DNA of 64,000 nucleotides, taken from Escherichia coli (GTDB lineage Bacteria; Pseudomonadota; Gammaproteobacteria; Enterobacterales; Enterobacteriaceae). Within the stretch, counting starts at the first letter, position 1. Each line of letters opens with the position of its first letter. A program made the position numbers and the translations under genes. Shown piece by piece: positions 6,565 through 63,220 of the stretch. Below the pieces are notes generated by a model. That model worked only from the letters and a program-made list of their open reading frames with translations. It did not search any database and was not told the DNA's origin. The stretch lies in NCBI RefSeq assembly GCF_030384885.1, contig NZ_CP128614.1. One strand, written 5' to 3'.

Positions 6565-7062
6565 TTAGCCGTTTCGACGCGCATAAACGGAGTGGGTGTA
6601 CGGAATTACAGCTTGAATGGTTTCGGTTGAGACAAGCTCGAATTCTGTTTCGTTGAGCATTGGGAAGAAGGCGTCACCCTCGAAGGTTTGATGTACCTCA
6701 GATAGAAACACGCCGTGGGCGTGAGGTAGTGCCAGAGTGTATATCTCAGCTCCGCCCGCGACGTAGAGTTCATTGCCGAGTTCGGATGCCAAAGCGATAG
6801 CGTGCGACAGCGTTGAAACAACTACGCAGCCAGTGGCGCGGTAGTTAGCTTGGCGTGAGATTACCAATGTGTGACGGTTCGGTAGAGGCTTGCCGATAGA
6901 CTCAAAGGTCTTTCGCCCCATGACAACGACTTTTCCCTCAGTGAGTCTGCGAAAAATCTTCTGCTCACCCGGAATTTTCCAGGGGATATTAGGACCATTG
7001 CCAATAACCCGATTGGCTCCCATCGCAGCAACGAGATAAATGCGTACTGATTCCGAGTTCAT
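6565..7062 (-). CDS. dfrA12: Trimethoprim-resistant dihydrofolate reductase DfrA12
   Basis: 165-aa ORF MNSESVRIYLVAAMGANRVIGNGPNIPWKIPGEQKIFRRLTEGKVVVMGRKTF…, recognised as DfrA12. Confidence 0.92.
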   Translation of the reverse strand: MNSESVRIYLVAAMGANRVIGNGPNIPWKIPGEQKIFRRLTEGKVVVMGRKTFESIGKPLPNRHTLVISRQANYRATGCVVVSTLSHAIALASELGNELYVAGGAEIYTLALPHAHGVFLSEVHQTFEGDAFFPMLNETEFELVSTETIQAVIPYTHSVYARRNG

Positions 7063-7063
7063 A

Positions 7064-7135
7064 TGGCTAACTTTGTTTTAGGGCGACTGCCCTGCTGCGT
7101 AACATCGTTGCTGCTCCATAACATCAAACATCGAC
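7064..7135 (-). other. attI1 recombination site / first-cassette boundary (approximate)
   Basis: …CTAAAACAAAGTTAGCC followed by the dfrA12 ATG on the cassette strand, between Pc/intI1 and the first cassette. Confidence 0.5.
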
Positions 7136-11477: not shown

Positions 11478-12379
11478 TCCGCTGCGGCGAGCTGCGCCTT
11501 CGCCGCAGCGAGGTACTCTTCGTTACCCGAGTCGAGGGCGAAGAGTGCGTAGGTGACCGCCCCGAACGCAAGGCGCTCCGCGATGTGGTGGGCGAGCCGC
11601 GGCCACACCCGGCCACCGGCCGCTTCATACGTGAGGAGGAGCTTCGCGAGCCCCTCTTCACCAAAGACCATAAGGTGCGCGGCCATGTCGATGGCAGGGT
11701 CATCAACGCGGGCCTCGCTCCAGTCGATCATCCCGCTGACGCGCTCCGTGTTGTCGATGAGCACATGGCCCACGTAGAGATCGCCATGCACCACCACGGA
11801 GAAATCTGGCCACGACGAATCGTCGTCGAGCCAGCGCTGCCACCGGTGGAGGCGCTTGTCGTTCACCACGAACTCGCGTCGGACGCGGTCAACGTCGTCG
11901 GCCACCTTCTGACGGGCCTGCGTCGGTGTACGGATGAGCATCCCCGCATCCACGGCGGCGGAAATGGGGACGGCATGCAGGGCGGCGAGCGCGGTCGCGA
12001 AGCTCTCCGCGAAGACCTCCGAGTCCTGCGGCACGACCCAGTCGGGCGTGGACGAACCAGGCTGGATGACCATCGCAGTCGAGTCTTCGAGCATGGGATA
12101 GGCAACGAGCTCGGCGTTGGCCACGCGCCAGTCCGGCACCGCGAACGGCAGGCGATTCTTGAGCATTGCCAGCACCCGCGCCTCTGGTTCGACCTTCGCG
12201 CTTACCTCGGCTCGGCGCGGGATGCGCAGCACCCACCGACGTCCATCGTCGACGGTGGCGATCACGATCCTATAGTCGAGCCCAAGCTCATTGACAGTCA
12301 GCGGGCCATGGAGCTTGAGCCCATGTCGGGCTGCAAGTGCGTACAGTTGGGAGGTATCGGCGGTCGTGACTACGGTCAT
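11474..12379 (-). CDS. mph(A): Macrolide 2'-phosphotransferase Mph(A)
   Basis: 301-aa ORF MTVVTTADTSQLYALAARHGLKLHGPLTVNELGLDYRIVIATVDDGRRWVLRIPRR…, recognised as Mph(A). Confidence 0.95.
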   Translation of the reverse strand: MTVVTTADTSQLYALAARHGLKLHGPLTVNELGLDYRIVIATVDDGRRWVLRIPRRAEVSAKVEPEARVLAMLKNRLPFAVPDWRVANAELVAYPMLEDSTAMVIQPGSSTPDWVVPQDSEVFAESFATALAALHAVPISAAVDAGMLIRTPTQARQKVADDVDRVRREFVVNDKRLHRWQRWLDDDSSWPDFSVVVHGDLYVGHVLIDNTERVSGMIDWSEARVDDPAIDMAAHLMVFGEEGLAKLLLTYEAAGGRVWPRLAHHIAERLAFGAVTYALFALDSGNEEYLAAAKAQLAAAE

Positions 12380-12448
12380 GATTCACTCCTGAGGGCTTGA
12401 CGGGTTTAGCCACCTAAATGTAACAGTCACGTCGGTTATATTCAATCC

Positions 12449-13268
12449 GGCACTGTTGCAAAGTTAGCGATGAGGCAGCCTTTTGTCTTATTCAAAGGCC
12501 TTACATTTCAAAAACTCTGCTTACCAGGCGCATTTCGCCCAGGGGATCACCATAATAAAATGCTGAGGCCTGGCCTTTGCGTAGTGCACGCATCACCTCA
12601 ATACCTTTGATGGTGGCGTAAGCCGTCTTCATGGATTTAAATCCCAGCGTGGCGTTGATTATCCGTTTCAGTTTGCCATGATCGCATTCAATCACGTTGT
12701 TCCGGTACTTAATCTGTCGGTGTTCAACGTCAGACGGGCACCGGCCTTCGCGTTTGAGCAGAGCAAGCGCGCGACCATAGGCGGGCGCTTTATCCGTGTT
12801 GATGAATCGCGGGATCTGCCACTTCTTCACGTTGTTGAGGATTTTACCCAGAAACCGGTATGCAGCTTTGCTGTTACGACGGGAGGAGAGATAAAAATCG
12901 ACAGTGCGGCCCCGGCTGTCGACGGCCCGGTACAGATACGCCCAGCGGCCATTGACCTTCACGTAGGTTTCATCCATGTGCCACGGGCAAAGATCGGAAG
13001 GGTTACGCCAGTACCAGCGCAGCCGTTTTTCCATTTCAGGCGCATAACGCTGAACCCAGCGGTAAATCGTGGAGTGATCGACATTCACTCCGCGTTCAGC
13101 CAGCATCTCCTGCAGCTCACGGTAACTGATGCCGTATTTGCAGTACCAGCGTACGGCCCACAGAATGATGTCACGCTGAAAATGCCGGCCTTTGAATGGG
13201 TTCATGTGCAGCTCCATCAGCAAAAGGGGATGATAAGTTTATCACCACCGACTATTTGCAACAGTGCC
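12449..13268 (-). mobile_element. IS26: IS26 variant copy (820 bp) with Tnp26 G184N
   Basis: Same terminal repeats at 12449-12462 and 13255-13268; differs from the copy at 8076-8895 by GG to AA in codon 184. Confidence 0.93.
12501..13205 (-). CDS. tnpA26: IS26 transposase, G184N allele
   Basis: Translation identical to the first copy except …KRIINATLGF…. Confidence 0.93.
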   Translation of the reverse strand: MNPFKGRHFQRDIILWAVRWYCKYGISYRELQEMLAERGVNVDHSTIYRWVQRYAPEMEKRLRWYWRNPSDLCPWHMDETYVKVNGRWAYLYRAVDSRGRTVDFYLSSRRNSKAAYRFLGKILNNVKKWQIPRFINTDKAPAYGRALALLKREGRCPSDVEHRQIKYRNNVIECDHGKLKRIINATLGFKSMKTAYATIKGIEVMRALRKGQASAFYYGDPLGEMRLVSRVFEM

Positions 13269-13412
13269 ACGCAAAGACGTAATGAGCAGTGTATCCCCTG
13301 CCACAATACCCTCTTCAGGGATGCTGTCAGTGGACGTCCAGTACTGACCCGCCAGCAAAGAATGAAATCGCTCTAAACGGTCAATGCTATTTTTGCTGAC
13401 CAGGTCACCCAT
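13269..13412 (-). pseudogene. 5' fragment of a backbone gene cut by the IS26 right end
   Basis: Minus-strand ATG at 13410-13412 opens a frame (MGDLVSKNSIDRLERFHSLLAGQYWTSTDSIPEEG…) that runs straight into the IS26 terminal repeat at 13268. Confidence 0.35.
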
Positions 13413-13662
13413 ATACTTTTCCTTCCAGATTCGTGTGTTAGGTGAATCATACCAGATTGCCCTTGCCGTCTAATAACGCAGAAAACTGTGAATCCAAAAT
13501 TCCTTAAATTCAAACCTGTCCAATATAAAAGATGGCTCTTTTTCTTATCCAGTGTTAAGCGATAATGCTCAATTTTATTTCATTATTGTCAGAATCAAAA
13601 TAATCTGAAAATAAAAAAGGCTTCAGAATTGAAGCCTCTATATTATACAACGTGAATGTATT

Positions 13663-14019
13663 TTATTTATCTTTCACCGGGTTCATTTCCCAGTATCTTT
13701 CACGTACGTTTTCTTGGCAATGGTCCGCTCGCTCCGGCGTGTCCCTTTTACGAGTAGCAAATGCTTCAATTACGGCATTCAAGTCTTTTTCTTTGATTTT
13801 AGATCCAACAGGCAAGTTTTCTTCAAACTCAGTCCTTACCAGTTCTTTCGTTTTTTTATAATCGGTTTCACTTTGGATTTCAGGTTTTAAACAAATATCG
13901 GCAACCATCACATCTGATTTGCCCGGGATCGGTTTTTTCCCGTTTTCAGATGCAAGGACCGCAGAGGAGGTAAAGGCGACAGACAGAGTTGCACATAACA
14001 GAAGGTATTTTAATTTCAT
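13663..14019 (-). CDS. Hypothetical secreted protein (signal peptide)
   Basis: 118-aa ORF with N-terminal signal sequence MKLKYLLLCATLSVAFTSSAVLA. Confidence 0.5.
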   Translation of the reverse strand: MKLKYLLLCATLSVAFTSSAVLASENGKKPIPGKSDVMVADICLKPEIQSETDYKKTKELVRTEFEENLPVGSKIKEKDLNAVIEAFATRKRDTPERADHCQENVRERYWEMNPVKDK

Positions 14020-14168
14020 GACTCACTCCATGATTATCAATGATGGTTGCTCAGACACATCATTTATACCATGCCTGTCACCGAATACGAGATCCCCATA
14101 TTTTGGCTTTAAATATTATCCAATAGGGTTTCATACACCTGGCTTCTGAAAGCAAGGTTCAAGGAGCT

Positions 14169-14786
14169 TCAGGGGGAAATCAGATTGTTGTCGACCCAGT
14201 ACTTGTGCAAACCTACCACCCAATTCCTGGAAATGGACGAAAGTTCATGCGCCAGTTCACGACAGCATTCAGGCGTAAAAATACGTATGGGTCCTGAAGT
14301 ACCGATATCAACAGACATGATAAACTCCAGAATGTTGCCATGGCATAGGTTGTTTCTCAGCCTGACAATTTCTGCTTCAGGTGTTCTCCCGGCTGCTACC
14401 TTAACCAACATATCCTGCTCGGCTGGAAATGAAAGTAATTCTACCGGCACCCCTTCCTGCTTGGCCTTTCTCAGTAAGGCATTACTCATTACGGAGATAC
14501 CCTCCAAGTCCACCAGCTCAGGAGCTGCATGCTGATCGTTAACTGTTGGTTTCAGCATCAGCGACTTCAACGTAACCATGAGTGATGTTTCAATCCCGTT
14601 CAGGAAGCTCGTACAGGCCGGTATCCATAGTTCGTGATGCAACGCCTCGGTTGCTTGTTTAAAGAACCAGTCAATCACGGGGACAGTGTGATAATCATAA
14701 TAGTGATTTATCTCGCTGAATCTTGACATATAAGCATCGTACTCAGCCTGGTCTTCAGGAGATAAAAAATTTGGTGGGAGGGGCAT
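14169..14786 (-). CDS. Hypothetical protein
   Basis: 205-aa ORF, no recognised motif. Confidence 0.45.
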   Translation of the reverse strand: MPLPPNFLSPEDQAEYDAYMSRFSEINHYYDYHTVPVIDWFFKQATEALHHELWIPACTSFLNGIETSLMVTLKSLMLKPTVNDQHAAPELVDLEGISVMSNALLRKAKQEGVPVELLSFPAEQDMLVKVAAGRTPEAEIVRLRNNLCHGNILEFIMSVDIGTSGPIRIFTPECCRELAHELSSISRNWVVGLHKYWVDNNLISP

Positions 14787-14960: not shown

Positions 14961-14979
14961 TGAGAATTCGAGTGTAGCT

Positions 14980-15414
14980 ATGTCTGTTATCCTTGAGCAC
15001 ATTAGCAACAAGCCTTACGAAATGGCACCTTTTTTCAGTGATTTACTGAGCTGTGGAGTGATGAGTCCGTGCGCCGGGCATGAAGATAATGAATTAAATT
15101 TGCATGAATATGTAGTCCGTAACCGCCCCTCAACCTTCTTTGTCAGGGCGGCGGGCCTCAGTATGATCAATGCCGGTATCAATGATGGCGCTATTCTGGT
15201 TGTGGATCGGTCTTTAACGGCACGACACGGCTCTATCGTCGTTGCGCTGGTGGATGGAGAGTTCACGGTAAAGATCTTACACACGTATCCTGAGCTGCTT
15301 TTGATGCCTTCTAATCCAGCCTATAAGCCGATACGTGTAAATCCCGAATCCCTTGAGATATGGGGCGTCGTCACCTTTGCACTGAATCAGTTTAGCCATG
15401 TACATGCACGTTGA
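14980..15414 (+). CDS. umuD: UmuD/MucA-like SOS mutagenesis protein (S24 LexA-like self-cleaving peptidase)
   Basis: 144-aa ORF with a Cys-Gly cleavage dipeptide near residue 25 and an S24 serine motif (GLSMINAG). Confidence 0.8.
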   Translation: MSVILEHISNKPYEMAPFFSDLLSCGVMSPCAGHEDNELNLHEYVVRNRPSTFFVRAAGLSMINAGINDGAILVVDRSLTARHGSIVVALVDGEFTVKILHTYPELLLMPSNPAYKPIRVNPESLEIWGVVTFALNQFSHVHAR

Positions 15415-16657
15415 TATTAACGGGGCCTATGCGGCATTTGAGTGTGCGATGGATCCCAAGCTGGCAAAAAAGCCGCTCATCATAGCCAGCAATAACGATT
15501 CGTCCGTCATTGCAATGAATAAACTGGCTAAAAGCGTTGGTATTAAGCGTGGGACCCCAATTTTTAAGTGCAGGGATTTGATTCAGCAACACCAGATCGA
15601 AGTCCGGAGCTCTAACTTTACTTTGTATGAAGACTACTCAAATCGCTTCCATGAAACGCTGGAAAGCTTCGCGCCTCAATCGAGTCGATATAGCATAGAT
15701 GAAAATTTCATGTTATTGAAAAACATGAACAAGATAATAGATTATGAAGATTACGGCCGGTTGATCAGAAGTACACTTCTTCATAATCTGTCCCTTACCT
15801 GTGGTGTGGGGTGTTCAAGCACCAAAACCCTGGCTAAATTATGCACCTATGCGAGCAAACGATGGGCAGCTACAGGCGGGGTTGTAGTTTTGACTGATCA
15901 GGCCAGGATCAGGAAGCTCCTGGGCCTTATCAGTACCAGAGAAATATGGGGTATTGGTCAAAAGATCAGTGAACGCCTGTCGGCTTTCGGGATCATCACT
16001 GCCGGTGATTTTTATAATAGCGACGTTCGCTTTTTACGTAAAAGCTTTGGCGTTGAAATCGAGCGTACCTGGCGGGAACTGCATGGCGAACCATGTTTCC
16101 GGCTGCATGAATCCCCTCCTGTCCGGCAACAGATTATCGTTTCCAGAAGTTTTGGTCAGCGCCTTAATGAGATAGGCAAGCTACATGAGGCAGTTTCATT
16201 TTTTACCGCCCGGGCGGCAGAGCAGCTGCGCAAGGATGGCTCGTGGACCCGTCAAATCACAGTCTTCATTCAGAGCAGCAATTATGCGCAAGGTGAAAAC
16301 CGCTACAGCAATTGTGGTATCGAGCCGCTTACCGCTACACAGGACACCCGCGATCTGGTTGATGCAGCCATGACCATCCTGAACCGCATTTACAAACCCG
16401 GGATAGCGTATGCGAAAGCTGGGGTAATGCTCTCCGCTATGACTGACGGCACAGAGCAACTCAGCCTGTTTGATGAGCGCCCGGCCAGGCCTGGCAGTCA
16501 GGCACTGATGAAAGTTATGGACCGGTTCAATAAAGAAAAGCGCGGAGCTCTGTTTTTGCTGGGGGAAGGCATTCAACAGGATTTTCGTATGAAACAGGCC
16601 ATGCTATCACCGAGATATACGACCCGCTGGGATGAATTACTCGTTGTAAAAGCGTAG
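15398..16657 (+). CDS. umuC: UmuC/MucB-like Y-family translesion DNA polymerase
   Basis: 419-aa ORF overlapping umuD by a few codons; N-terminus (DINGAYAAFEC…PLIIASNND) is Y-family-like. Confidence 0.8.
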   Translation: MYMHVDINGAYAAFECAMDPKLAKKPLIIASNNDSSVIAMNKLAKSVGIKRGTPIFKCRDLIQQHQIEVRSSNFTLYEDYSNRFHETLESFAPQSSRYSIDENFMLLKNMNKIIDYEDYGRLIRSTLLHNLSLTCGVGCSSTKTLAKLCTYASKRWAATGGVVVLTDQARIRKLLGLISTREIWGIGQKISERLSAFGIITAGDFYNSDVRFLRKSFGVEIERTWRELHGEPCFRLHESPPVRQQIIVSRSFGQRLNEIGKLHEAVSFFTARAAEQLRKDGSWTRQITVFIQSSNYAQGENRYSNCGIEPLTATQDTRDLVDAAMTILNRIYKPGIAYAKAGVMLSAMTDGTEQLSLFDERPARPGSQALMKVMDRFNKEKRGALFLLGEGIQQDFRMKQAMLSPRYTTRWDELLVVKA

Positions 16658-16693
16658 CGGCCATGACCGGCATGGCCGTACTCATCAAAAGTG

Positions 16694-16704
16694 AAAGTAA
16701 CTTT
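16694..16704. repeat. Palindrome AAAGTAACTTT, copy a (intergenic)
   Basis: Read directly; between the umuC stop and the DsbA-like gene stop. Confidence 0.6.
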
Positions 16705-17512
16705 AGGCCCCGCGAGCTTTTTCGATTGCGCCCTGCAAAGTTGCTGCGTCCATAGCCCCGGGGATAAATGTGGTAGTCGCCGCATTCGGCTTTTTCATAT
16801 TCATAATGATGAAGCCGGGTGTGCCGGTGATCCCAAGCGCTTCGCCCAGCTGCATGTTGCCGGAGATCACGTTTTCATATCGGTTTTTTTCCCTGTCAGA
16901 AAACGTGCTGTTAAACCCTGACTTATCCACCACAGTATTAAAGTCGCTGAGTTCGAATTTGCGTTGAGAGGTCATGAAGGTATGAGCCACAGCCATCAGG
17001 TTGTTGTGGTATTTACGATAGGCTTCAGCACCGAAATTCTGATAGACGTGCAGACCCGTAGCGGCCCCCATGGCAGATACAGGTTTTGAACCGGCAAAAA
17101 TCGGGAATTCTTTAAAGAAGAATTTTACATCTTTGCTCTGATTCATTACCGATTCAACAACAGGTGTAACCCGCATGCAGTAAATACACTGATAGTCGAA
17201 GAACTCGATTACCGCGACGTCGGCGTCATCCGGGCCGATGTTTGGCGTCTCCTTGGTATCCAGCAGAGCTGGCGCATATGGAATTATTCGTTCCACTGAG
17301 GCACTTACGTTCTGATTTTCCAGCGCCTTACCTGCTTCCACTAAATAATGGGGATTTTTTACCAGGTAAGTAGCGGCAATTTTGCCAATTTCTTCCTCAC
17401 TGAGCACCTTCGGTTTAAAATAAGTTGCCGCGATTAACGCCGAGGCAGCGGTAGCAATTACCGCAGAAATTAAAATCGTGGCCATCGGTTTTAAATAAAA
17501 TTCTTTAGACAT
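16703..17512 (-). CDS. DsbA-like periplasmic thioredoxin-fold oxidoreductase
   Basis: 269-aa ORF with an N-terminal anchor/signal and a CxxC motif (DYQCIYC). Confidence 0.55.
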   Translation of the reverse strand: MSKEFYLKPMATILISAVIATAASALIAATYFKPKVLSEEEIGKIAATYLVKNPHYLVEAGKALENQNVSASVERIIPYAPALLDTKETPNIGPDDADVAVIEFFDYQCIYCMRVTPVVESVMNQSKDVKFFFKEFPIFAGSKPVSAMGAATGLHVYQNFGAEAYRKYHNNLMAVAHTFMTSQRKFELSDFNTVVDKSGFNSTFSDREKNRYENVISGNMQLGEALGITGTPGFIIMNMKKPNAATTTFIPGAMDAATLQGAIEKARGA

Positions 17513-18230: not shown

Positions 18231-18289
18231 AAGCAGACGGCGGGAAGAGAATGTTCAAAAGTGACTTTTGGACACGCACATAAACGTGG

Positions 18290-18745: not shown

Positions 18746-19144
18746 TCAGGCCAGGCGCTCATTGAAAGCTACCACGAGCTGCGAATCGGGATTTTTTACC
18801 AGTTCGGGCCGGATAACTTTTAGTTGCCTCGTTGGGGCGAGCTCATCTGTAGGCCTGATGGTGGTATTACCCGGCCCCTTGCGGGTACTGTCGGTGTTTA
18901 CCTTGAGCTTTTTATTTCCCAGGTAGCTTTCCATCTTTTTAGAGATGGTGTCACCTGTGGTCGCAACACCAGAGAGTTCCTTTAGTTGTTCACCTTGATC
19001 CATTTGTACCGATGACATCAGAAATACGATTCCTGGATCGTTTTCCGTTCCACAGGCTCCGTACTGACATTGTGCAGCGAAAACGGGCTGTACACCTACA
19101 GCAACCAGCATTAACGTACTCAGTAAAGTAGATTTCATACACAC
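18746..19144 (-). CDS. Hypothetical secreted protein
   Basis: 132-aa ORF with signal peptide (MCMKSTLLSTLMLVAVGVQPVFA). Confidence 0.45.
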   Translation of the reverse strand: MCMKSTLLSTLMLVAVGVQPVFAAQCQYGACGTENDPGIVFLMSSVQMDQGEQLKELSGVATTGDTISKKMESYLGNKKLKVNTDSTRKGPGNTTIRPTDELAPTRQLKVIRPELVKNPDSQLVVAFNERLA

Positions 19145-19158
19145 CTCTTACAGTCGGA

Positions 19159-19169
19159 AAAGTTACTTT
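19159..19169. repeat. Palindrome AAAGTTACTTT, copy b (overlaps the DsbC-like stop)
   Basis: Read directly (GGAAAAGTTACTTTTGCGC). Confidence 0.6.
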
Positions 19170-19912
19170 TGCGCAGCGCCCATTTGGGTCACCAGGTTTT
19201 CCGGGCTCAGCCACCCCGTAAATAACTGCGGTTTGCCGCTTAGTGTCACCATGGTAGGAGTACCTTGCAGCGGGATTGTTGAGGCCACCTGGAAATGCGA
19301 TTTGATAATGTTTAAGCAAGCCTCATCAGGACGTCCTTCCGGGATAGTTGAAACCGGATTCATCGCTGCATCCAGAGCTTCGTTTGGCTTTGCTGAACAC
19401 CAGATTTTGGCCATGTTCCCGGCTACTACCGAGTTCAGTCCTGCACGTGGGAATGCAAGAAACTTAATCGAAATACCGGCATCAAGATAAGACTTCAGAT
19501 CATGATGCAGTTTTTGGCAGTATCCACAGGTTATATCGGTAAAGATAGCAAGCCGGTATTTTTCGTTTGGTGATTTGTAGTCGATGGATTTTGTTTTGGA
19601 TGCGAATTCCCGGACGCCCATTAAAATGGCCTGCTCAGTGGTGTTTACCACATCTTTACCTTTCACGTGGAATAAGCTTCCGGTAAAAATGTAATCTCCG
19701 TCTTTGCTCACGTAACTTACCCCCTCCCTGGAAATCACCGTAAAAATATCTTTTACTGGCGAGGGTTCGACGTGCTCGATTGAAAGCCCAATGGCTTTGA
19801 GCTTATCCCGGGCTGCATCTGGCAGTACCATTGTATTAACCGGCTCGGCATTCATCGTGAAGGCGGTACTTAATGAAAGAAGTAATACCGATGCCTTAAT
19901 AATTTTTTTCAT
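19163..19912 (-). CDS. dsbC: DsbC-like thiol:disulfide interchange protein
   Basis: 249-aa ORF with signal peptide and the DsbC active site CGYC. Confidence 0.75.
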   Translation of the reverse strand: MKKIIKASVLLLSLSTAFTMNAEPVNTMVLPDAARDKLKAIGLSIEHVEPSPVKDIFTVISREGVSYVSKDGDYIFTGSLFHVKGKDVVNTTEQAILMGVREFASKTKSIDYKSPNEKYRLAIFTDITCGYCQKLHHDLKSYLDAGISIKFLAFPRAGLNSVVAGNMAKIWCSAKPNEALDAAMNPVSTIPEGRPDEACLNIIKSHFQVASTIPLQGTPTMVTLSGKPQLFTGWLSPENLVTQMGAAQK

Positions 19913-21248: not shown

Positions 21249-21251
21249 ATT

Positions 21252-21262
21252 AAAGTAACTTT
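21252..21262. repeat. Palindrome AAAGTAACTTT, copy c (intergenic)
   Basis: Read directly (TTAAAGTAACTTTTACGG). Confidence 0.6.
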
Positions 21263-21355
21263 TACGGAGAGCATGCCCGCATTATCAGTTCTATGCTTCT
21301 CCATTTCTGCCCCGGGTCAAAGCATTGCACAGTTGGAAGAAAACATGCCGGTCTC

Positions 21356-26787: not shown

Positions 26788-28266
26788 TCAGTTACGTGTG
26801 CCACGAATACTTTCAGTGAAAGCCTTCCGTTGCAGGCGACGGTTATCCCAGGTTGAAATGACGTCCGAGCTGGTACCGACCTGGCTGTGCGATAGCTCAT
26901 AGGCGGCTTTAACCTGTTTTGAGAGATTGTCTGTTAATCGGTTGAGATCATCCCTTTTACCCGACAGCGACTCACTCGGTATGCTCATGGTTGAAATTTT
27001 GGCCTCAACCTGGCGCAACATGTTGATTACGAGGCTCGTCGCAGCAATAGTGCTTATGTCCTGAATGTATGCGTACCCTTCCGGTGCTTCGAATGTTTGC
27101 AAAGAGTCGATAATGGTCGGGATGCCGATATAGGAGATAATGCGTAATTCATCATCTGAAACACGAACGTCGTTGATGATTTTTTTCTGTACGTTTAAAA
27201 GAAGATCAGAAATGGTATCCTTCAATCCCTTAAAACCACCGTCATTAACTTCTGACATGACAAGGCACTGAGCCTTTCGTGGGGATGATGGATCTGGTGC
27301 CGGAGAACACTTGAGCATTTTAATTGATCCGCCAGCTGGTGGCCCCATGATGTAATCCGTGACAGTCATGGTAGACGGGCGGACTTCCATTCCCGCTTTT
27401 TCGCCTTTGCTATCCCAGTTGATAATGACAGTACCCACGAGAGACATAAGTTGTTCTGCCAATTTATAACCGGATAACTCCGTTACCCCTCCGATGTTCA
27501 TTGTTCCCTTATCAATATCCATGAACGACATATAGAAGAGGTTACCACTGAATTTTTCAGCGAACTCTTCGGGATCCTTTGCTTTAACCTGAGAAGTGAC
27601 AGCTTCAGGTGACTTTGTCATCGATGAGCCAAAATCAGGAATGAGACCATTAATCGATCCCAGAATTGAGGCTGGTCCAGAGCTAACTGAGTTAGCGAAC
27701 TGGCTTGGCGTACCCACGTTTTCAGAAAGGAAAGAGTAAGTTGCATTGCATGAATCTTTCGCAAATTTATTTAGCGCTTGCAGTTTGTTTTGGATGTCAT
27801 TAATCGTTGCAGCACAGTCAGCACAAATAGCTGAAACAGCAACGTTAAAAGCATAGATAGCCGCACCCTGGGCAATACCACGGGCCACCTGCACAAGCTG
27901 GTCCCCGTTGATCATGCTGAAGGACCCAAGAAAAACGTCAATACCATTACAACCGACAGAAGCTTTTGGAAACGACATGGAAACAAGGTTGGTATTAACG
28001 TTTGTTGTTCGGTAAGACATTGACCCGCCAACTATGCCTGTACGGGTTGCTGTGGAAAAGGTGGCCGGGCTGGTAGACGTCATCATGCCATTGAAAATGT
28101 TACGCATTGCGTTGTCTGCATTTGCAGTCGGGGCTAAAATTGCAGCACAAACAGAAAGAGACAAAAGTAACTTTTTGAAGTTGAAAACGGCATTACTGCG
28201 CATAAGTGCCTCCAAAACTGCCGCCAGCATTGAGATAATTGACCGGATCGGCCGTAGGCATGTCAT
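26788..28266 (-). CDS. trhH: F-type T4SS TraH/TrhH-like protein
   Basis: 492-aa ORF with a signal peptide; the true start is probably the internal Met near 28203. Confidence 0.75.
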   Translation of the reverse strand: MTCLRPIRSIISMLAAVLEALMRSNAVFNFKKLLLSLSVCAAILAPTANADNAMRNIFNGMMTSTSPATFSTATRTGIVGGSMSYRTTNVNTNLVSMSFPKASVGCNGIDVFLGSFSMINGDQLVQVARGIAQGAAIYAFNVAVSAICADCAATINDIQNKLQALNKFAKDSCNATYSFLSENVGTPSQFANSVSSGPASILGSINGLIPDFGSSMTKSPEAVTSQVKAKDPEEFAEKFSGNLFYMSFMDIDKGTMNIGGVTELSGYKLAEQLMSLVGTVIINWDSKGEKAGMEVRPSTMTVTDYIMGPPAGGSIKMLKCSPAPDPSSPRKAQCLVMSEVNDGGFKGLKDTISDLLLNVQKKIINDVRVSDDELRIISYIGIPTIIDSLQTFEAPEGYAYIQDISTIAATSLVINMLRQVEAKISTMSIPSESLSGKRDDLNRLTDNLSKQVKAAYELSHSQVGTSSDVISTWDNRRLQRKAFTESIRGTRN

Positions 28267-42753: not shown

Positions 42754-43038
42754 TTATTTAAGCTGGTCATCGTCTCTGGCCAGCATAGCCCAACCATTCG
42801 ACTGGTTTTCGCGGGAGTAAGGATTCATTTCAAAATAACTATCTACCGCGTCGCTGTCCGCAACAGAACTGTTGTTAGCTCTCTTTGAACCCTGAACCAC
42901 TACAGCATCAACCTCTGCGGCTTTCCCGTTGCGCTGTACCAGGATTTTAACCGTCTTGGGCTTACGTCTTGCGAGCAGTTTGTTGGCGATAAAAAGCACA
43001 ACAATCCAGGCCAAAAGCACGTATAAAAATTTATTCAT
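42754..43038 (-). CDS. Small membrane protein
   Basis: 94-aa ORF with N-terminal TM helix. Confidence 0.4.
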   Translation of the reverse strand: MNKFLYVLLAWIVVLFIANKLLARRKPKTVKILVQRNGKAAEVDAVVVQGSKRANNSSVADSDAVDSYFEMNPYSRENQSNGWAMLARDDDQLK

Positions 43039-43201
43039 AATGCCCTCCTTTGTATGTGATTATTATACCTGCTTCCATTGCAGGCCAAACAGGTTCGGTG
43101 TATGAAAAATAGACTTCTCTCCGGCGTATAGCAATCTACTTACTGATCTGTTTTCGTATCAAACTGTATGGCATAACCGAGGGGCGTACGTGGTGAGTCA
43201 G

Positions 43202-43212
43202 AAAGTTACTTT
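43202..43212. repeat. Palindrome AAAGTTACTTT, copy i (intergenic)
   Basis: Read directly (CAGAAAGTTACTTTTCCG). Confidence 0.6.
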
Positions 43213-43394
43213 TCCGTAATAGTTAATTTCAGATCCTTCTTCCAGTTACGCTTCAGTATAAAACCGATACCCTCTAATTCAGCATCCTTCACGTTTAATA
43301 CGCTTCACTTTAAGGCAGGGCTTTTCGGTTGATATGAATTCTTTTTCCGGTTGCTGGACATGGGTTTCATCCTGATAGTTAAAATTGCAGGCTA

Positions 43395-46910: not shown

Positions 46911-46975
46911 TGCCCTGTTTCCCCTTGTCCTGAAAAAGTTACCGACCCGTCCGGATGGAGGGGTCGGTCAGAAAA

Positions 46976-48160
46976 TCATGACTGTCCCTTGTTCATCTTA
47001 TCAGCATGCTTACGCAGGTACTCTTTCAGGTCAGCATGAGCGTTGATGATATCGTTCATTTCATCATTGGTCAGAACAAGCGTGTAAGTATCAGTACTGA
47101 CAGATTCACCTTCTTTAAGCTTGGCTTCTTCAGCAATACGTTCAAAAATCGGGATCGCGGTGTCTGCAATGACGGTCACAGTCTTTTTGTTCAGAACGCT
47201 GGACATGGAAGGTGCTTTACCTGCCGGGTTCTGTTTAGGAGCGCTGTCCTTTGGAGCTGGAGCCGGTTCCTGTACCGGTGGCGTATCCAGCGTCTCCGTA
47301 TTGCTTTCATCGTTCAGTTGATCCGGTACCGGGGTGTTATCGGTAGTATCATCTGCCGGTTGCTCAGCACCGATGTTTTCCGGAGTCTGCGGATCTGCCA
47401 TGCGCTCTTCTACCTTGGCAGCTTTGACGAATTTCAGCGTGTTTTTCGTCGCCTTGCCATAGATGGAGATCGCTTTGTTGATGTTATCTACCGCATCCTC
47501 ACCGCTGTACATATACTCGTCCAGTGCAACGTACATGCTCACCTGATCGCTCACAAGCATGGTCTGTAGTTCAGAAGGCAGGTCCAGTACGCGAACCATC
47601 TGGCGAAGATGCTGCTCTGATTTACCACGTTTTTTTGCCAGTTCCGCAAAGGTCTTAGGCTCTTCTTTATCTTCAACCAGACGCTTAATTGAAAGCGCTT
47701 CAGCTACGACAGACAGCGCCAGGTTGGAGTTGCCGGTCAGGGTGAAGAGTTCTGCTTTTGAAGCGCTACCGCGAAACTCTTCGCAGCGAATACGAGTAAT
47801 GCGTTCACGCCCTTCTGCTTCCAGCTGGCGGTTTGCAATAGCGATGGAACGGATACGGCAAGCCCCCTGACGCAGTACAGGTACGCCATTAACCATCTGA
47901 ACAACGATAGGCGTCACGCTGAACGGGTCTTCCATGTAGGCATCGGCCAGGCTGTTCAGGTGTTCCACAACGTGAGGCATTGAATAGTAGAGCTCGCCCA
48001 TACCGGCCGTGCGGGTGTTAAAGCCTTCCTGCTCTACAACAACCGAAGGGTCAATGATAAGGCCGTTGCCTTTACGGGCACCGTTACCAGTGCGTTCCAG
48101 GTAACCACGAAGGCTGATTTCGTTGCTGTTGTTTTTTACTTCAGTTTCGATTGCGGACAT
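46976..48160 (-). CDS. ParB/KorB-like protein (ParB N-terminal nuclease-like domain, HTH, Pro/Glu-rich linker)
   Basis: 394-aa ORF; ParB-box-like stretch (…VPVLRQGACRIRSIAIANRQ…) and a low-complexity acidic/proline linker; one palindrome copy lies ~90 bp upstream of the start. Confidence 0.5.
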   Translation of the reverse strand: MSAIETEVKNNSNEISLRGYLERTGNGARKGNGLIIDPSVVVEQEGFNTRTAGMGELYYSMPHVVEHLNSLADAYMEDPFSVTPIVVQMVNGVPVLRQGACRIRSIAIANRQLEAEGRERITRIRCEEFRGSASKAELFTLTGNSNLALSVVAEALSIKRLVEDKEEPKTFAELAKKRGKSEQHLRQMVRVLDLPSELQTMLVSDQVSMYVALDEYMYSGEDAVDNINKAISIYGKATKNTLKFVKAAKVEERMADPQTPENIGAEQPADDTTDNTPVPDQLNDESNTETLDTPPVQEPAPAPKDSAPKQNPAGKAPSMSSVLNKKTVTVIADTAIPIFERIAEEAKLKEGESVSTDTYTLVLTNDEMNDIINAHADLKEYLRKHADKMNKGQS

Positions 48161-48250
48161 TTTTGTTCTCTTTTTTGGTTGGTTGTTTAACTGCGCTACA
48201 ACACAACAATACCAGGTTCGACATTTTTCCTAATAGGTTGCGGAGAAGAA

Positions 48251-48261
48251 AAAGTAACTTT
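48251..48261. repeat. Palindrome AAAGTAACTTT, copy j (upstream of ParB-like gene)
   Basis: Read directly (GAAAAAGTAACTTTTTTT). Confidence 0.6.
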
Positions 48262-48376
48262 TTTTAAAAATTTTCCTGAGGCAATACTACTCGATCCGTC
48301 CGTTTTAAATCTTCACAACAGTGGGCCGTTTTTACGTTTAAGCAAAATAACTGGTTCAGAAGGTGACTCAGAGAGA

Positions 48377-48387
48377 AAAGTTACTTT
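48377..48387. repeat. Palindrome AAAGTTACTTT, copy k (intergenic)
   Basis: Read directly (GAAAAGTTACTTTTCCGG). Confidence 0.6.
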
Positions 48388-49261
48388 TCCGGTTGTCTGG
48401 GCCAGTGATGGGAGAGTGGCAGGACAGGAATGGCTAAACCGGTGCGGGTCTCTTGTAAGTCGCAGGGGATTCAGGAGATATAGAGGTAAACTGGTACGTT
48501 CAGTTTTTGGATTGAGCCGGGCTTTTGGCCCGGGCTTAAGGAAGCAGAAATTTGAACGAACTGGCAGGTAATGCTTTATGCCGCCGACAGCTGGCCGTCA
48601 GTGCTTTGCTGTTCTGGTTTGACAGTTGGGGGATAACCGGCAGTTAGCCGCTGGCATTCCGCATCACAGAAAGCCCTGAGGTTGCTGAAGACGGACTCCA
48701 TGAAATCAGCATGAGCATACGAGTCTACAGGACGTGTCTTGTTATCTTTCATCTTGTTCTCCTCAATCATTATTAAAACCAGCGGATTTAGTTTCTGGCG
48801 CTCCATCTGCTGACCGGCTTTCCCAGAGAGCAGCGATGTGTCGGGTTCTTTTTCTCATTTTATCGTTTTCATCGGGCCCATCCGGGCGTATAAGAGACCG
48901 ATTTGGCATGTTTAGGAAACGTACTGGCGTAATTAAAAGCTGAGGTTGGATTTGGAATAAAAGGATGCTTTTCCCGTTTGTCGGGTCTTTCGCCACCGCT
49001 GCACGATGATTCTGTCAGGCATTCTGCGCCCTCCCAGGCTGCACATCTGGAAACAAGCGTTGGGATGTTCCCTTCCCCTGCTCACCGTAGAAAGATCGGC
49101 AAGTCCCGACGGTCGTTCCGTACGAGCCGGGTCCAAATAATGAATAAATAAAACGCCGCTTCAATTGTATTGACAATAGAAGTCAGGAGGATCATAGTGT
49201 CATTCATGGTGCGGCTTTCGCACCACCGCCCCGGCGGTACCGGGCAGAACTGGAGTACCTC

Positions 49262-62971: not shown

Positions 62972-63103
62972 TGATGATCCTTTTGTTTAGTTCCCCGATT
63001 CCGGGGGTGAGTGAATTAATTTAAATTTATATTTGTCTGGTTTAATTAGAACGTTTCCAGGCTATGCGTAAACAGGTAATGCAAAGGCTGTATCAACAGG
63101 ATT

Positions 63104-63114
63104 AAAGTTACTTT
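63104..63114. repeat. Palindrome AAAGTTACTTT, copy n (upstream of paralog 2)
   Basis: Read directly (TTAAAGTTACTTTTCTGG). Confidence 0.6.
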
Positions 63115-63220
63115 TCTGGATGCAGCAACGCTTGGACATGATGTCCACATTACATCACGATCAAAGCTAAGTTTTTTTTGTATAACCCCTTCATTTTCGT
63201 GTGTTTCGCGTTTCAGACGC

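Follow-up and report, generated by a model that had tools for sequence, protein, structure and literature searches.

We analyzed a 64,000-nucleotide stretch of Escherichia coli DNA (the window; contig NZ_CP128614.1, assembly GCF_030384885.1), which is IncHI2 plasmid backbone. It encodes a 394-amino-acid (aa) orphan ParB-like protein and contains many copies of a 13-bp palindrome, AAAAGT-N-ACTTTT, two of them ahead of the gene for that protein. Sequence comparison makes it clear that the palindrome is a real element under purifying selection across the plasmid. Its pairing with the promoter of the ParB-like gene is conserved. The protein is a member of the ParB superfamily by its fold and its helix-turn-helix (HTH) domain, and by gene context and motif it is not a partition ParB. 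Judged from sequence, there is about an even chance that it regulates its own gene and acts across the whole plasmid as a DNA clamp or regulator of the ParB type, in the manner of KorB, VirB, or BisD.

In the mechanism that we propose, dimers of the protein would bind the 13-bp sites (AAAAGTWACTTTT). The two copies ahead of its own gene would provide autoregulation, the proximal one abutting the -35 element, and the other ~45 sites, including the intragenic ones, would allow plasmid-wide action. The protein could regulate while staying bound at its sites, or it could be a nucleotide-gated clamp, loading there and then sliding away. KorB, VirB, and BisD provide the model for such action. Its role would be other than that of the adaptor protein of a partition system. 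The literature that we searched contained no description of the motif or of the 394-aa protein for IncHI plasmids. Relative to that literature, the novelty lies in the associated network of DNA elements, which is unusually dense and deeply conserved; the protein takes its place among the orphan ParB-fold regulators or clamps of mobile elements.

A palindrome dispersed over the plasmid backbone

The window contained 13 to 14 copies of the palindrome at no more than one mismatch. The expected number was 0.21, and 0 of 100 shuffles reached that count. The 2.8 kb surrounding the ParB-like gene is 100% identical to many IncHI2 plasmids from E. coli, Salmonella, Enterobacter, and Klebsiella. One of these is pSTM6-275 (NZ_CP019647.1; full size, 275.8 kb), which is colinear with the window over approximately 16 to 51 kb and 56 to 64 kb. 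It contained 23 perfect copies (0.07 in shuffles) and 46 copies at no more than one mismatch (0.6 in shuffles). They occur in both transfer regions (Tra1 and Tra2), around oriT and close to the replication genes, within the ter region, and ahead of Ig-like and hypothetical genes. Nearly all are in the backbone, and essentially none are in resistance, sil/pco, or transposon DNA. Counted by hand over the whole plasmid, about 25 of the 46 fall between genes or at a gene boundary. Noncoding DNA makes up 15.8% of the annotated 34 kb of the window, and 7 of the 13 sites in that part are intergenic, an enrichment at P = 0.0017.

No other palindrome with 6-bp arms was found backbone-wide. The remaining enriched palindromes were IS26-internal sequences and tetO operators, the latter being the positive control for the enumeration. 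Conservation of AAAAGT-N-ACTTTT is confined to the 13 bp, and the central base is usually A or T. Eight sites could be aligned between IncHI2 and plasmid R27. Their arms were identical at 93 of 96 positions, against 70 to 80% in the flanks (P = 6e-9), and the central base differed at 3 of the 8. Sites within trhH, trhR, and the coupling-protein gene are among those conserved.

The same motif was the top palindrome in IncHI1 plasmids, where the ParB-like protein is 65% identical, and in Klebsiella IncHI1B/FIB plasmids, where it is 35% identical. One 40-kb stretch from the Klebsiella plasmids contained 12 perfect copies, and another stretch contained 25 at no more than one mismatch. Only the shorter core AAAGT-N-ACTTT ranked top in more distant IncHI-like contigs.

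The copies in the window other than those upstream of the ParB-like gene are as follows (window positions; no strand assigned).

18257..18269: intergenic copy with central G, between convergent small genes (motif scan)
19158..19170: perfect copy where two minus-strand genes meet, ~20 bp upstream of the one at 18746-19138 (motif scan)
21251..21263: one-mismatch intergenic copy after a HAD-domain gene (motif scan)
28163..28175: perfect copy within trhH, near its 5' end; 13/13 bases the same in R27
30782..30794: copy within trhR with central C; arms 11/12 the same in R27
31223..31235: perfect copy 76 bp upstream of trhR, within the oriT region; 13/13 bases the same in R27
31708..31720: one-mismatch copy in the oriT region, 198 bp upstream of mobI/traH (motif scan)
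35131..35143: one-mismatch copy within the MobH relaxase gene (motif scan)
36569..36581: perfect copy within the coupling-protein gene traD/traG; 13/13 bases the same in R27
38299..38311: one-mismatch copy at the 3' end of traD/traG, 66 bp ahead of the next gene; position kept in R27, and a core-motif AAAGT-N-ACTTT copy at the corresponding position of a distant locus (L022)
43201..43213: one-mismatch intergenic copy, 163 bp upstream of the gene at 42754-43038 (minus strand; motif scan)
63103..63115: one-mismatch intergenic copy, 132 bp upstream of a small minus-strand gene (motif scan)

Other repeated elements were seen in the plasmids compared. A GC-rich palindrome, CCCCCG-N4-CGGGGG, occurs 18 times in 40 kb of a Klebsiella IncHI1B/FIB plasmid (L009) and may be a hairpin element between genes in a run of small same-strand genes. 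Another, AACAAC-N3-GTTGTT, occurs 7 times in 40 kb of Klebsiella aerogenes pMB5632_2 (L013). Beside the RepHI1A gene lie tandem repeats of ~43 bp, at 38881, 38924, and 38967 in R27 (L014) and at 13513 and 13555 in L012. Each contains AAAAGGCACTTTT, a one-mismatch variant of the palindrome. These repeats may be iterons.

The ParB-like gene and its upstream sites

The gene and the elements around it are as follows.

46976..48160, minus strand: gene for the 394-aa orphan ParB-like protein (paralog 1), with an ATG start; 100% identity to WP_001272970.1
48206..48233, minus strand: inferred promoter, with -35 TTAGGA (48228-48233), a 16-nt spacer, and extended -10 TGgTATTGT (hexamer 48206-48211)
48250..48262, no strand: proximal palindrome AAAAGTAACTTTT, 90 bp upstream of the ATG, its center at about -57 from the inferred transcription start
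48376..48388, no strand: distal palindrome AAAAGTTACTTTT, 216 bp upstream of the ATG
46933..46968, minus strand: terminator-like hairpin (46941-46968) and U5 tract directly past the stop codon; fold centroid -20.1 kcal/mol, z = -1.7

The two upstream copies are 100% complementary to each other. One example of an arm mutant of AAAAGTAACTTTT would be AAAACTAAGTTTT. A palindrome lies upstream of the start codon in all six diverged lineages (35 to 65% protein identity), and in five of the six a copy lies approximately 90 to 110 bp upstream. The positions relative to the ParB-like start are as follows.

IncHI2: -90 and -216
IncHI1: -94 and -212 (protein 65% identical)
L021: -91 and -289 (protein 48% identical)
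Yersinia: -98 (protein 44% identical)
Leclercia: -246 and -279 (protein 50% identical)
Klebsiella plasmids: six perfect copies within ~860 bp upstream (protein 35% identical)

The proximal palindrome is just upstream of the -35 element and abuts it. The TT of the -35 and the G-TAnnnT of the -10 are invariant in the alignment of the six lineages. A strict consensus scan for a sigma-70 promoter of this gene made no call, and neither did a rule-based terminator scan. The promoter is proposed because of its cross-lineage conservation and the terminator because of its folding.

The R27 counterpart is at 92336-93541 and was assigned as R0104 by open reading frame (ORF) order from flmA (R0101). It is expressed constitutively at a high level (2196 at 25°C, 2155 at 37°C), with a 2.6-fold increase when htdA is mutated. 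Expression falls from 2196 at R0104 to 207 at R0105. The hairpin and U5 tract, together with this drop, suggest that the ParB-like gene is a single-gene, autoregulated transcription unit. The layout of site and promoter is what would be expected of a DNA-binding protein with its own operator, and it fits that pairing without proving it.

The gene lies beyond the "H" operon of Tra1 (mobI and the genes for the MobH relaxase, the coupling protein, an S49 peptidase, and a nuclease), ~5 kb from its end. RefSeq labels its product only "hypothetical protein" or "DNA-binding protein." The neighboring genes are small and hypothetical. No parA was among the annotated neighbors, and no korA-like or parA-like neighbor was found. 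An initial annotation of this DNA had described a 394-aa protein at 46976 with no adjacent parA, and both statements hold. It had also named a cognate parA elsewhere as the mark of a conventional partition protein; the nearest parA is ~80 kb away and has its own parB. The two upstream palindromes that it had placed at 48251 and 48377 are present at 48250 and 48376, one position off. Its 1.1-kb intergenic region corresponds to a gap of 1,101 bp (48161-49261), in which RefSeq places a 58-aa ORF at 48576-48752 (minus strand). This ORF is doubtful because the small ORF annotated in the corresponding region of IncHI1 is on the opposite strand relative to the ParB-like gene; IncHI1 has no annotated same-strand counterpart. 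An Rfam scan of the gap found no RNA element.

The gap also contains a sigma-70-like promoter at 49170-49198 (plus strand; TTGACA, 17-nt spacer, CATAGT), which precedes the divergent DUF5417 gene (49262) by 64 bp. This promoter has no palindrome within 780 bp. The divergent 49262 cluster is at least 886 bp from the palindromes, which adjoin the ParB-like gene instead. Elsewhere in the window, at 7039-7117 (minus strand), is an Rfam AAC_AAD_leader/attI match (71 bits), a mark of a class 1 integron, in a part that is not colinear with pSTM6-275.

An orphan protein of ParB fold, its paralog, and the partition modules

The regions of the 394-aa protein, all encoded on the minus strand, are as follows. 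Model confidence is given as the predicted local distance difference test (pLDDT), and HMM denotes a hidden Markov model.

aa 17-145 (47726..48112): N-terminal ParB/sulfiredoxin (Srx)-type domain of the CTPase (cytidine triphosphatase) fold; pLDDT ~90, Foldseek matches 7bnr, 6sdk, and 8qa9, HMM alignment with Spo0J
aa 46-50 (48011..48025): box I-like GFNTR; N48 and R50 invariant in both paralog groups and in IncC-type relatives
aa 96-105 (47846..47875): box II variant LRQGACRIRS, in register with ParB GERRxRA
aa 146-255 (47396..47725): ParB-type HTH DNA-binding domain (Pfam, phmmer, AlphaFold 2 [AF2], Foldseek)
aa 181-192 (47585-47620): putative recognition helix SEQHLRQMVRVL, within the HTH domain
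aa 256-323 (47192..47395): disordered linker of 68 aa, rich in Pro, Glu, Asp, and Thr (also Gln); pLDDT <50
aa 324-394 (46979..47191): conserved C-terminal domain with a helix, a "TYTLVLTNDEM" segment, and a helix; low model confidence

Pfam detected a single family, HTH_ParB (PF17762), at aa 149-209 (E = 1.5e-5). The HTH region matched the Caulobacter ParB DNA-binding domain by phmmer (6s6h/6t1f), and a family profile matched PDB sequences at E of about 1e-8. PHROG 1033, "ParB-like partition protein," covers aa 24-255 (E = 1.6e-21). The match to NCBIfam parB_part was below threshold. The AF2 model, built from 17 homologs, is confident over aa 17-255, disordered over aa 256-323, and of modest to low confidence in the C-terminal domain, where it has two helices. 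Its top Foldseek matches in the PDB were all of the ParB family: Myxococcus ParB-CTPgammaS 7bnr, KorB-KorA-DNA 8qa9, Noc 7ol9, Caulobacter ParB 6t1f, and Spo0J. The C-terminal domain is presumed to mediate dimerization. The linker differs greatly in length and sequence between homologs.

The HTH-like stretch and the Pro/Glu-rich linker of the initial annotation are thus both borne out. Its ParB-box-like N-terminal region is upheld by PHROG, profile alignment, and structure, with no Pfam call and with boxes II and III altered. The domain search that it had proposed, for ParBc and KorB, returned HTH_ParB from Pfam and neither of those two: the ParB-like N-terminal family ParBc gave no match, and the KorB families gave none even at E ≤ 10.

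Box II is present but altered, since the family profile aligns LRQGaCRiRA with IVAGERRFRA of Spo0J; the profile also matches ParB and Noc. G99, R102, and R104 are retained. Ala or His stands in place of the Glu, and Cys101 in place of the first Arg; this Cys is invariant in both the paralog 1 and the paralog 2 proteins (paralog 2 is described below). In the box III region, N144 is retained and the Glu is absent. Nucleotide binding by the protein is plausible from these residues. The wider family comprises 5,750 representatives at E ≤ 1e-3. The paralog 1 orthologous group is narrow, with four clusters at 50% identity, all from IncHI-like plasmids of Enterobacterales.

The protein might be a ParB/Srx-fold enzyme or anti-defense protein of plasmid leading regions, such as a nuclease or nucleoside triphosphatase, with no sequence-specific link to the palindrome. 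We consider this very improbable. Genes typical of leading regions lie nearby (hok, DUF905, DUF957, methyltransferases, and a phosphoadenosine phosphosulfate [PAPS] reductase-like gene), the invariant Cys of box II recalls the GCHR of sulfiredoxin, and Foldseek gave a weak match to sulfiredoxin 6ky4. Against it, the ParB HTH DNA-binding domain is complete and conserved, and the best structural matches are the DNA-clamping proteins ParB, KorB, and Noc. The Cys is also off the sulfiredoxin position once the conserved Arg residues are aligned, as read from the sequence.

pSTM6-275 encodes two complete partition modules. Par1 is a parA-parB pair at 14975-17229 of the record, and Par2 is parM-parR. 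Because both are complete elsewhere on the plasmid, the 394-aa protein is a supernumerary ParB-like protein. Neither Par1 nor Par2 contained the palindrome in the pSTM6-275 scan. A ~2.5-kb array of ~249-bp imperfect repeats is upstream of the Par1 parA (pSTM6-275 [L003], ~12100-14600). It is probably the Par1 centromere or incompatibility region, unrelated to the palindrome. The Par1 ParB was considered as a binder of the palindrome and rejected, given its own 249-bp array and the lack of palindromes in Par1 and Par2. Near the ParB-like gene itself, two to six sites cluster upstream, most of the 46 are dispersed plasmid-wide, and the sequence of the Par1 array is different. The ParA-interaction motif [LFI]G[KR]G[LFI], as defined in PMC12704722, was absent from the N termini of all 17 homologs in a regular-expression search.

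These observations also bear on a role in segregation or DNA organization. The protein could coat or bridge the ~275-kb plasmid from parS-like sites, with the Par1 ParA or with none, and serve compaction, positioning, or transfer handling. Its ParB architecture is complete, from the N-terminal domain and HTH to the linker and the C-terminal domain; many of the sites are intragenic yet conserved, and sites flank oriT. BisD has been proposed to serve in both gene activation and DNA clamping (PMC12409273). We nevertheless regard such an accessory factor as unlikely. Its N terminus lacks the ParA-binding motif, and the two partition modules are each served by an adaptor of their own, Par1 also by a separate repeat array. 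The sites are enriched intergenically, with one abutting a conserved promoter, and plasmids without the gene persist.

A second orphan ParB-like protein, paralog 2 (WP_000114859.1), is encoded next to a Dam methylase gene at 269897-271060 of pSTM6-275 (L007 40198-41361, minus strand). It contains 387 aa and is ~30% identical to paralog 1. By ORF order it is R0042 of R27, which is annotated as "partition protein," is among the most highly expressed R27 genes, and is 3.4-fold up in the htdA mutant. In pSTM6-275 it has one imperfect palindrome, AAAAGGTACTTTT, 79 bp upstream. The other enriched palindromes of the plasmid were considered as its target and rejected; they are the IS26 and tetO sequences.

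The orphan homolog of the 394-aa protein in IncC is on a plasmid that has no AAAAGT motif, so family membership does not predict the motif. The more distant homologs P0035 and P0040 are uninformative because they have no palindrome of their own upstream of the gene. IncC plasmid pNDM10505 (L010) contains a different dispersed 14-bp palindrome, TTTCACATGTGAAA, with 7 perfect copies in 40 kb (0.15 expected) at 290, 3874, 4333, 9648, 12984, 24028, and 27443. All are intergenic. One copy precedes parA by 63 bp, with a KorB-domain parB after parA, and no TTTCACATGTGAAA site is upstream of the orphan homolog. This looks like a KorB-style operator network in IncC.

Candidate controllers, precedents, and significance

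Several observations weigh against the 394-aa protein as a plasmid-wide regulator acting through the palindrome. Sites cluster elsewhere too, for example upstream of the Tra2 operon. Some plasmids without paralog 1 retain the motif (H55-H57 and H64), although these losses are probably recent deletions. pMB5632_2 is very dense in AAAAGT-N-ACTTTT (25 copies at no more than one mismatch), yet paralog 1 is apparently missing from it, tblastn finding a single matching place. In every lineage examined, the distant L023 and L024 among them, a copy is retained 32 to 119 bp upstream of the annotated paralog 2 start; the L022 copy directly adjoins that start. The residues that stood out as common to both motif-associated paralog groups were G53, G55, Q98, and G143 of the N-terminal domain plus L213, and none in the DNA-binding domain apart from L213 was uniquely common to them. 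Co-variation of motif and helix cannot be shown, because the motif is unchanged where the paralog 1 helix changes (SEQHLRQ to SVTHVRK). This test has no power in any case, since the paralog 1 family has only the four 50%-identity clusters. With two residues of GERR (the Glu and the first Arg) missing from box II, nucleotide binding is not assured. Neither sequence analysis nor AlphaFold 3 is a reliable predictor of nucleotide specificity (PMC12704722). TrhR co-occurs with the motif and has homologs in the Klebsiella-type plasmids. Finally, most R27 genes are under the direct or indirect control of TrhR, TrhY, and HtdA (PMC7366339).

The palindrome could accordingly be the site of another IncHI factor, of the paralog 2/R0042 type, TrhR/TrhY, HtdA, or a small protein. 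The ParB-like gene would then be merely one conserved target, and its product would have another DNA target or role. This alternative is possible, though we lean away from it. Besides the observations above, the high expression of R0042 speaks for it. The HtdA-TrhR/TrhY circuit affects most backbone genes and leaves out Par1 and the accessory genes, a pattern that mirrors the distribution of the motif.

Other evidence points away from another factor. Short 13-bp palindromes that recur inside genes are typical of ParB-family proteins (KorB, Noc, and ParB). Five lineages have SEQH(L/I/V)R(Q/K) as the putative recognition helix of paralog 1, and the Klebsiella plasmids have SVTHVRK. The corresponding helix in paralog 2 is highly variable (SPTTISS, SNTTIAA, SEMAVRQ, and SAVTVTN) while the motif is fixed, which mildly favors paralog 1. 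The site upstream of paralog 2 is imperfect in IncHI2, IncHI1A, and Klebsiella plasmids. No recognizable DNA-binding domain was found in TrhR, TrhY, or HtdA. The palindrome was absent, in both IncHI2 and R27, from the promoter regions of the strongly HtdA/TrhRY-dependent AN and Z operons, which argues against its being a TrhR/TrhY box. That hypothesis is weakened. A correlation of sites with expression in the R27 htdA mutant was dropped because nearly every backbone gene is induced.

TrhY (29833-30345, minus strand) ends in CEKC, 16 aa, and CPRC. This arrangement is zinc-ribbon-like and recalls the zinc site of FlhC; Pfam gave no FlhC match in TrhY. TrhY may parallel the BisC/BisD pairing of ICEclc.

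A ParB-type regulator of the kind that we propose for the 394-aa protein has several precedents. KorB of the IncP-1 plasmid RK2 is a CTP-dependent clamp of the ParB family and a global repressor; its operator is TTTAGCSGCTAAA, also 13 bp, with 12 copies. KorB shares with our protein the ParB N-terminal and HTH fold (Foldseek 8qa9, target-normalized template modeling score 0.66; also 1r71). Both are on conjugative resistance plasmids. Both are associated with a dispersed 13-bp palindrome of odd length that lies near promoters, far from them, or inside genes, and a copy lies in the promoter of each protein's gene. In contrast to KorB, our protein has no KorB Pfam domain, and its profile match to KorB chains is insignificant (E of about 0.7). 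Its gene is in no operon with parA (incC) or korA, and the ParA motif is absent. The palindrome sequence differs, there are ~46 sites instead of 12, and the GxCR of box II is not canonical. Its sequence places it outside the KorB family.

BisD of ICEclc is likewise an orphan ParB-like protein on a conjugative element. Like our protein, it has an unusually long flexible linker and then a C-terminal domain predicted to be largely helical (at low confidence in our protein), and its palindromic sites can be intragenic. The C-terminal domain of BisD is an effector domain, and BisD activates transfer genes with BisC, over long distances, as a CTP clamp (PMC12409273). It differs in having two 23-bp bisS sites from which it spreads ~50 kb, against ~46 short dispersed sites here; the two were compared by description.

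VirB of the Shigella virulence plasmid is, like our protein, a stand-alone ParB-like protein on a large enterobacterial plasmid without a cognate ParA. The genes of that plasmid are H-NS-silenced and temperature-regulated, and R27 is under H-NS/Hha control (PMC7366339; PMC10770331). VirB is a CTP-dependent, ParB-like antagonist of H-NS silencing (PMC10770331). It derives from P1/F-type ParB, whereas our protein is closest to chromosomal-type ParB, Noc, and KorB and matches P1 ParB chains only at E of about 0.4.

Noc of Bacillus subtilis is, like our protein, an orphan ParB paralog that arose by duplication. It has ~70 dispersed palindromic sites, many of them intragenic, and Foldseek and profile matches (7ol9, 7nfu, and 6y93) support a fold common to the two. 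Noc differs in being chromosomal, in tethering DNA to the membrane, and in acting on cell division. No amphipathic N-terminal membrane helix is evident from reading our sequence.

The initial annotation had concluded that the protein is a global repressor rather than a partition protein. The second half fits the absence of a ParA motif and ParA neighbor and the presence of Par1 and Par2 elsewhere. The ~46 dispersed sites have the layout of KorB operators, with the proximal copy at a promoter, although the protein is not of the KorB family by sequence. Repression would be one of three precedents among orphan ParB-like regulators, by analogy: KorB represses, VirB relieves silencing, and BisD activates.

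Typhoid multidrug resistance, mcr-1, mcr-9, and NDM are among the important resistance traits of IncHI1, IncHI2, and Klebsiella IncHI1B/FIB plasmids. For the control of IncHI plasmids as it is known (TrhR/TrhY, HtdA, and H-NS/Hha), no DNA-sequence logic has been defined, and a conserved 13-bp element in ~46 copies offers a concrete handle on it. The candidate binder belongs to the class of ParB-CTPase switches and could be easily purified, mutated, and tested by chromatin immunoprecipitation. A broader and more speculative idea, to which we give little weight, is that the IncHI plasmids (HI1, HI2, and Klebsiella HI1B/FIB) share an ancient network of ~46 sites that loads a Cys-substituted (GxCR) orphan ParB clamp. 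This clamp, perhaps with R0042 and TrhR/TrhY-HtdA, would be the missing effector that spreads an H-NS- and temperature-dependent on/off decision over the backbone. Such an effector would explain why an htdA mutation changes how most genes of R27 are expressed. If the 394-aa protein does act through the palindrome, it would be another ParB-fold protein repurposed for plasmid-wide gene control beside KorB, VirB, and BisD, with an unusual box II and far more sites. It may then offer a way to interfere with the transfer or the carriage cost of IncHI-type plasmids.

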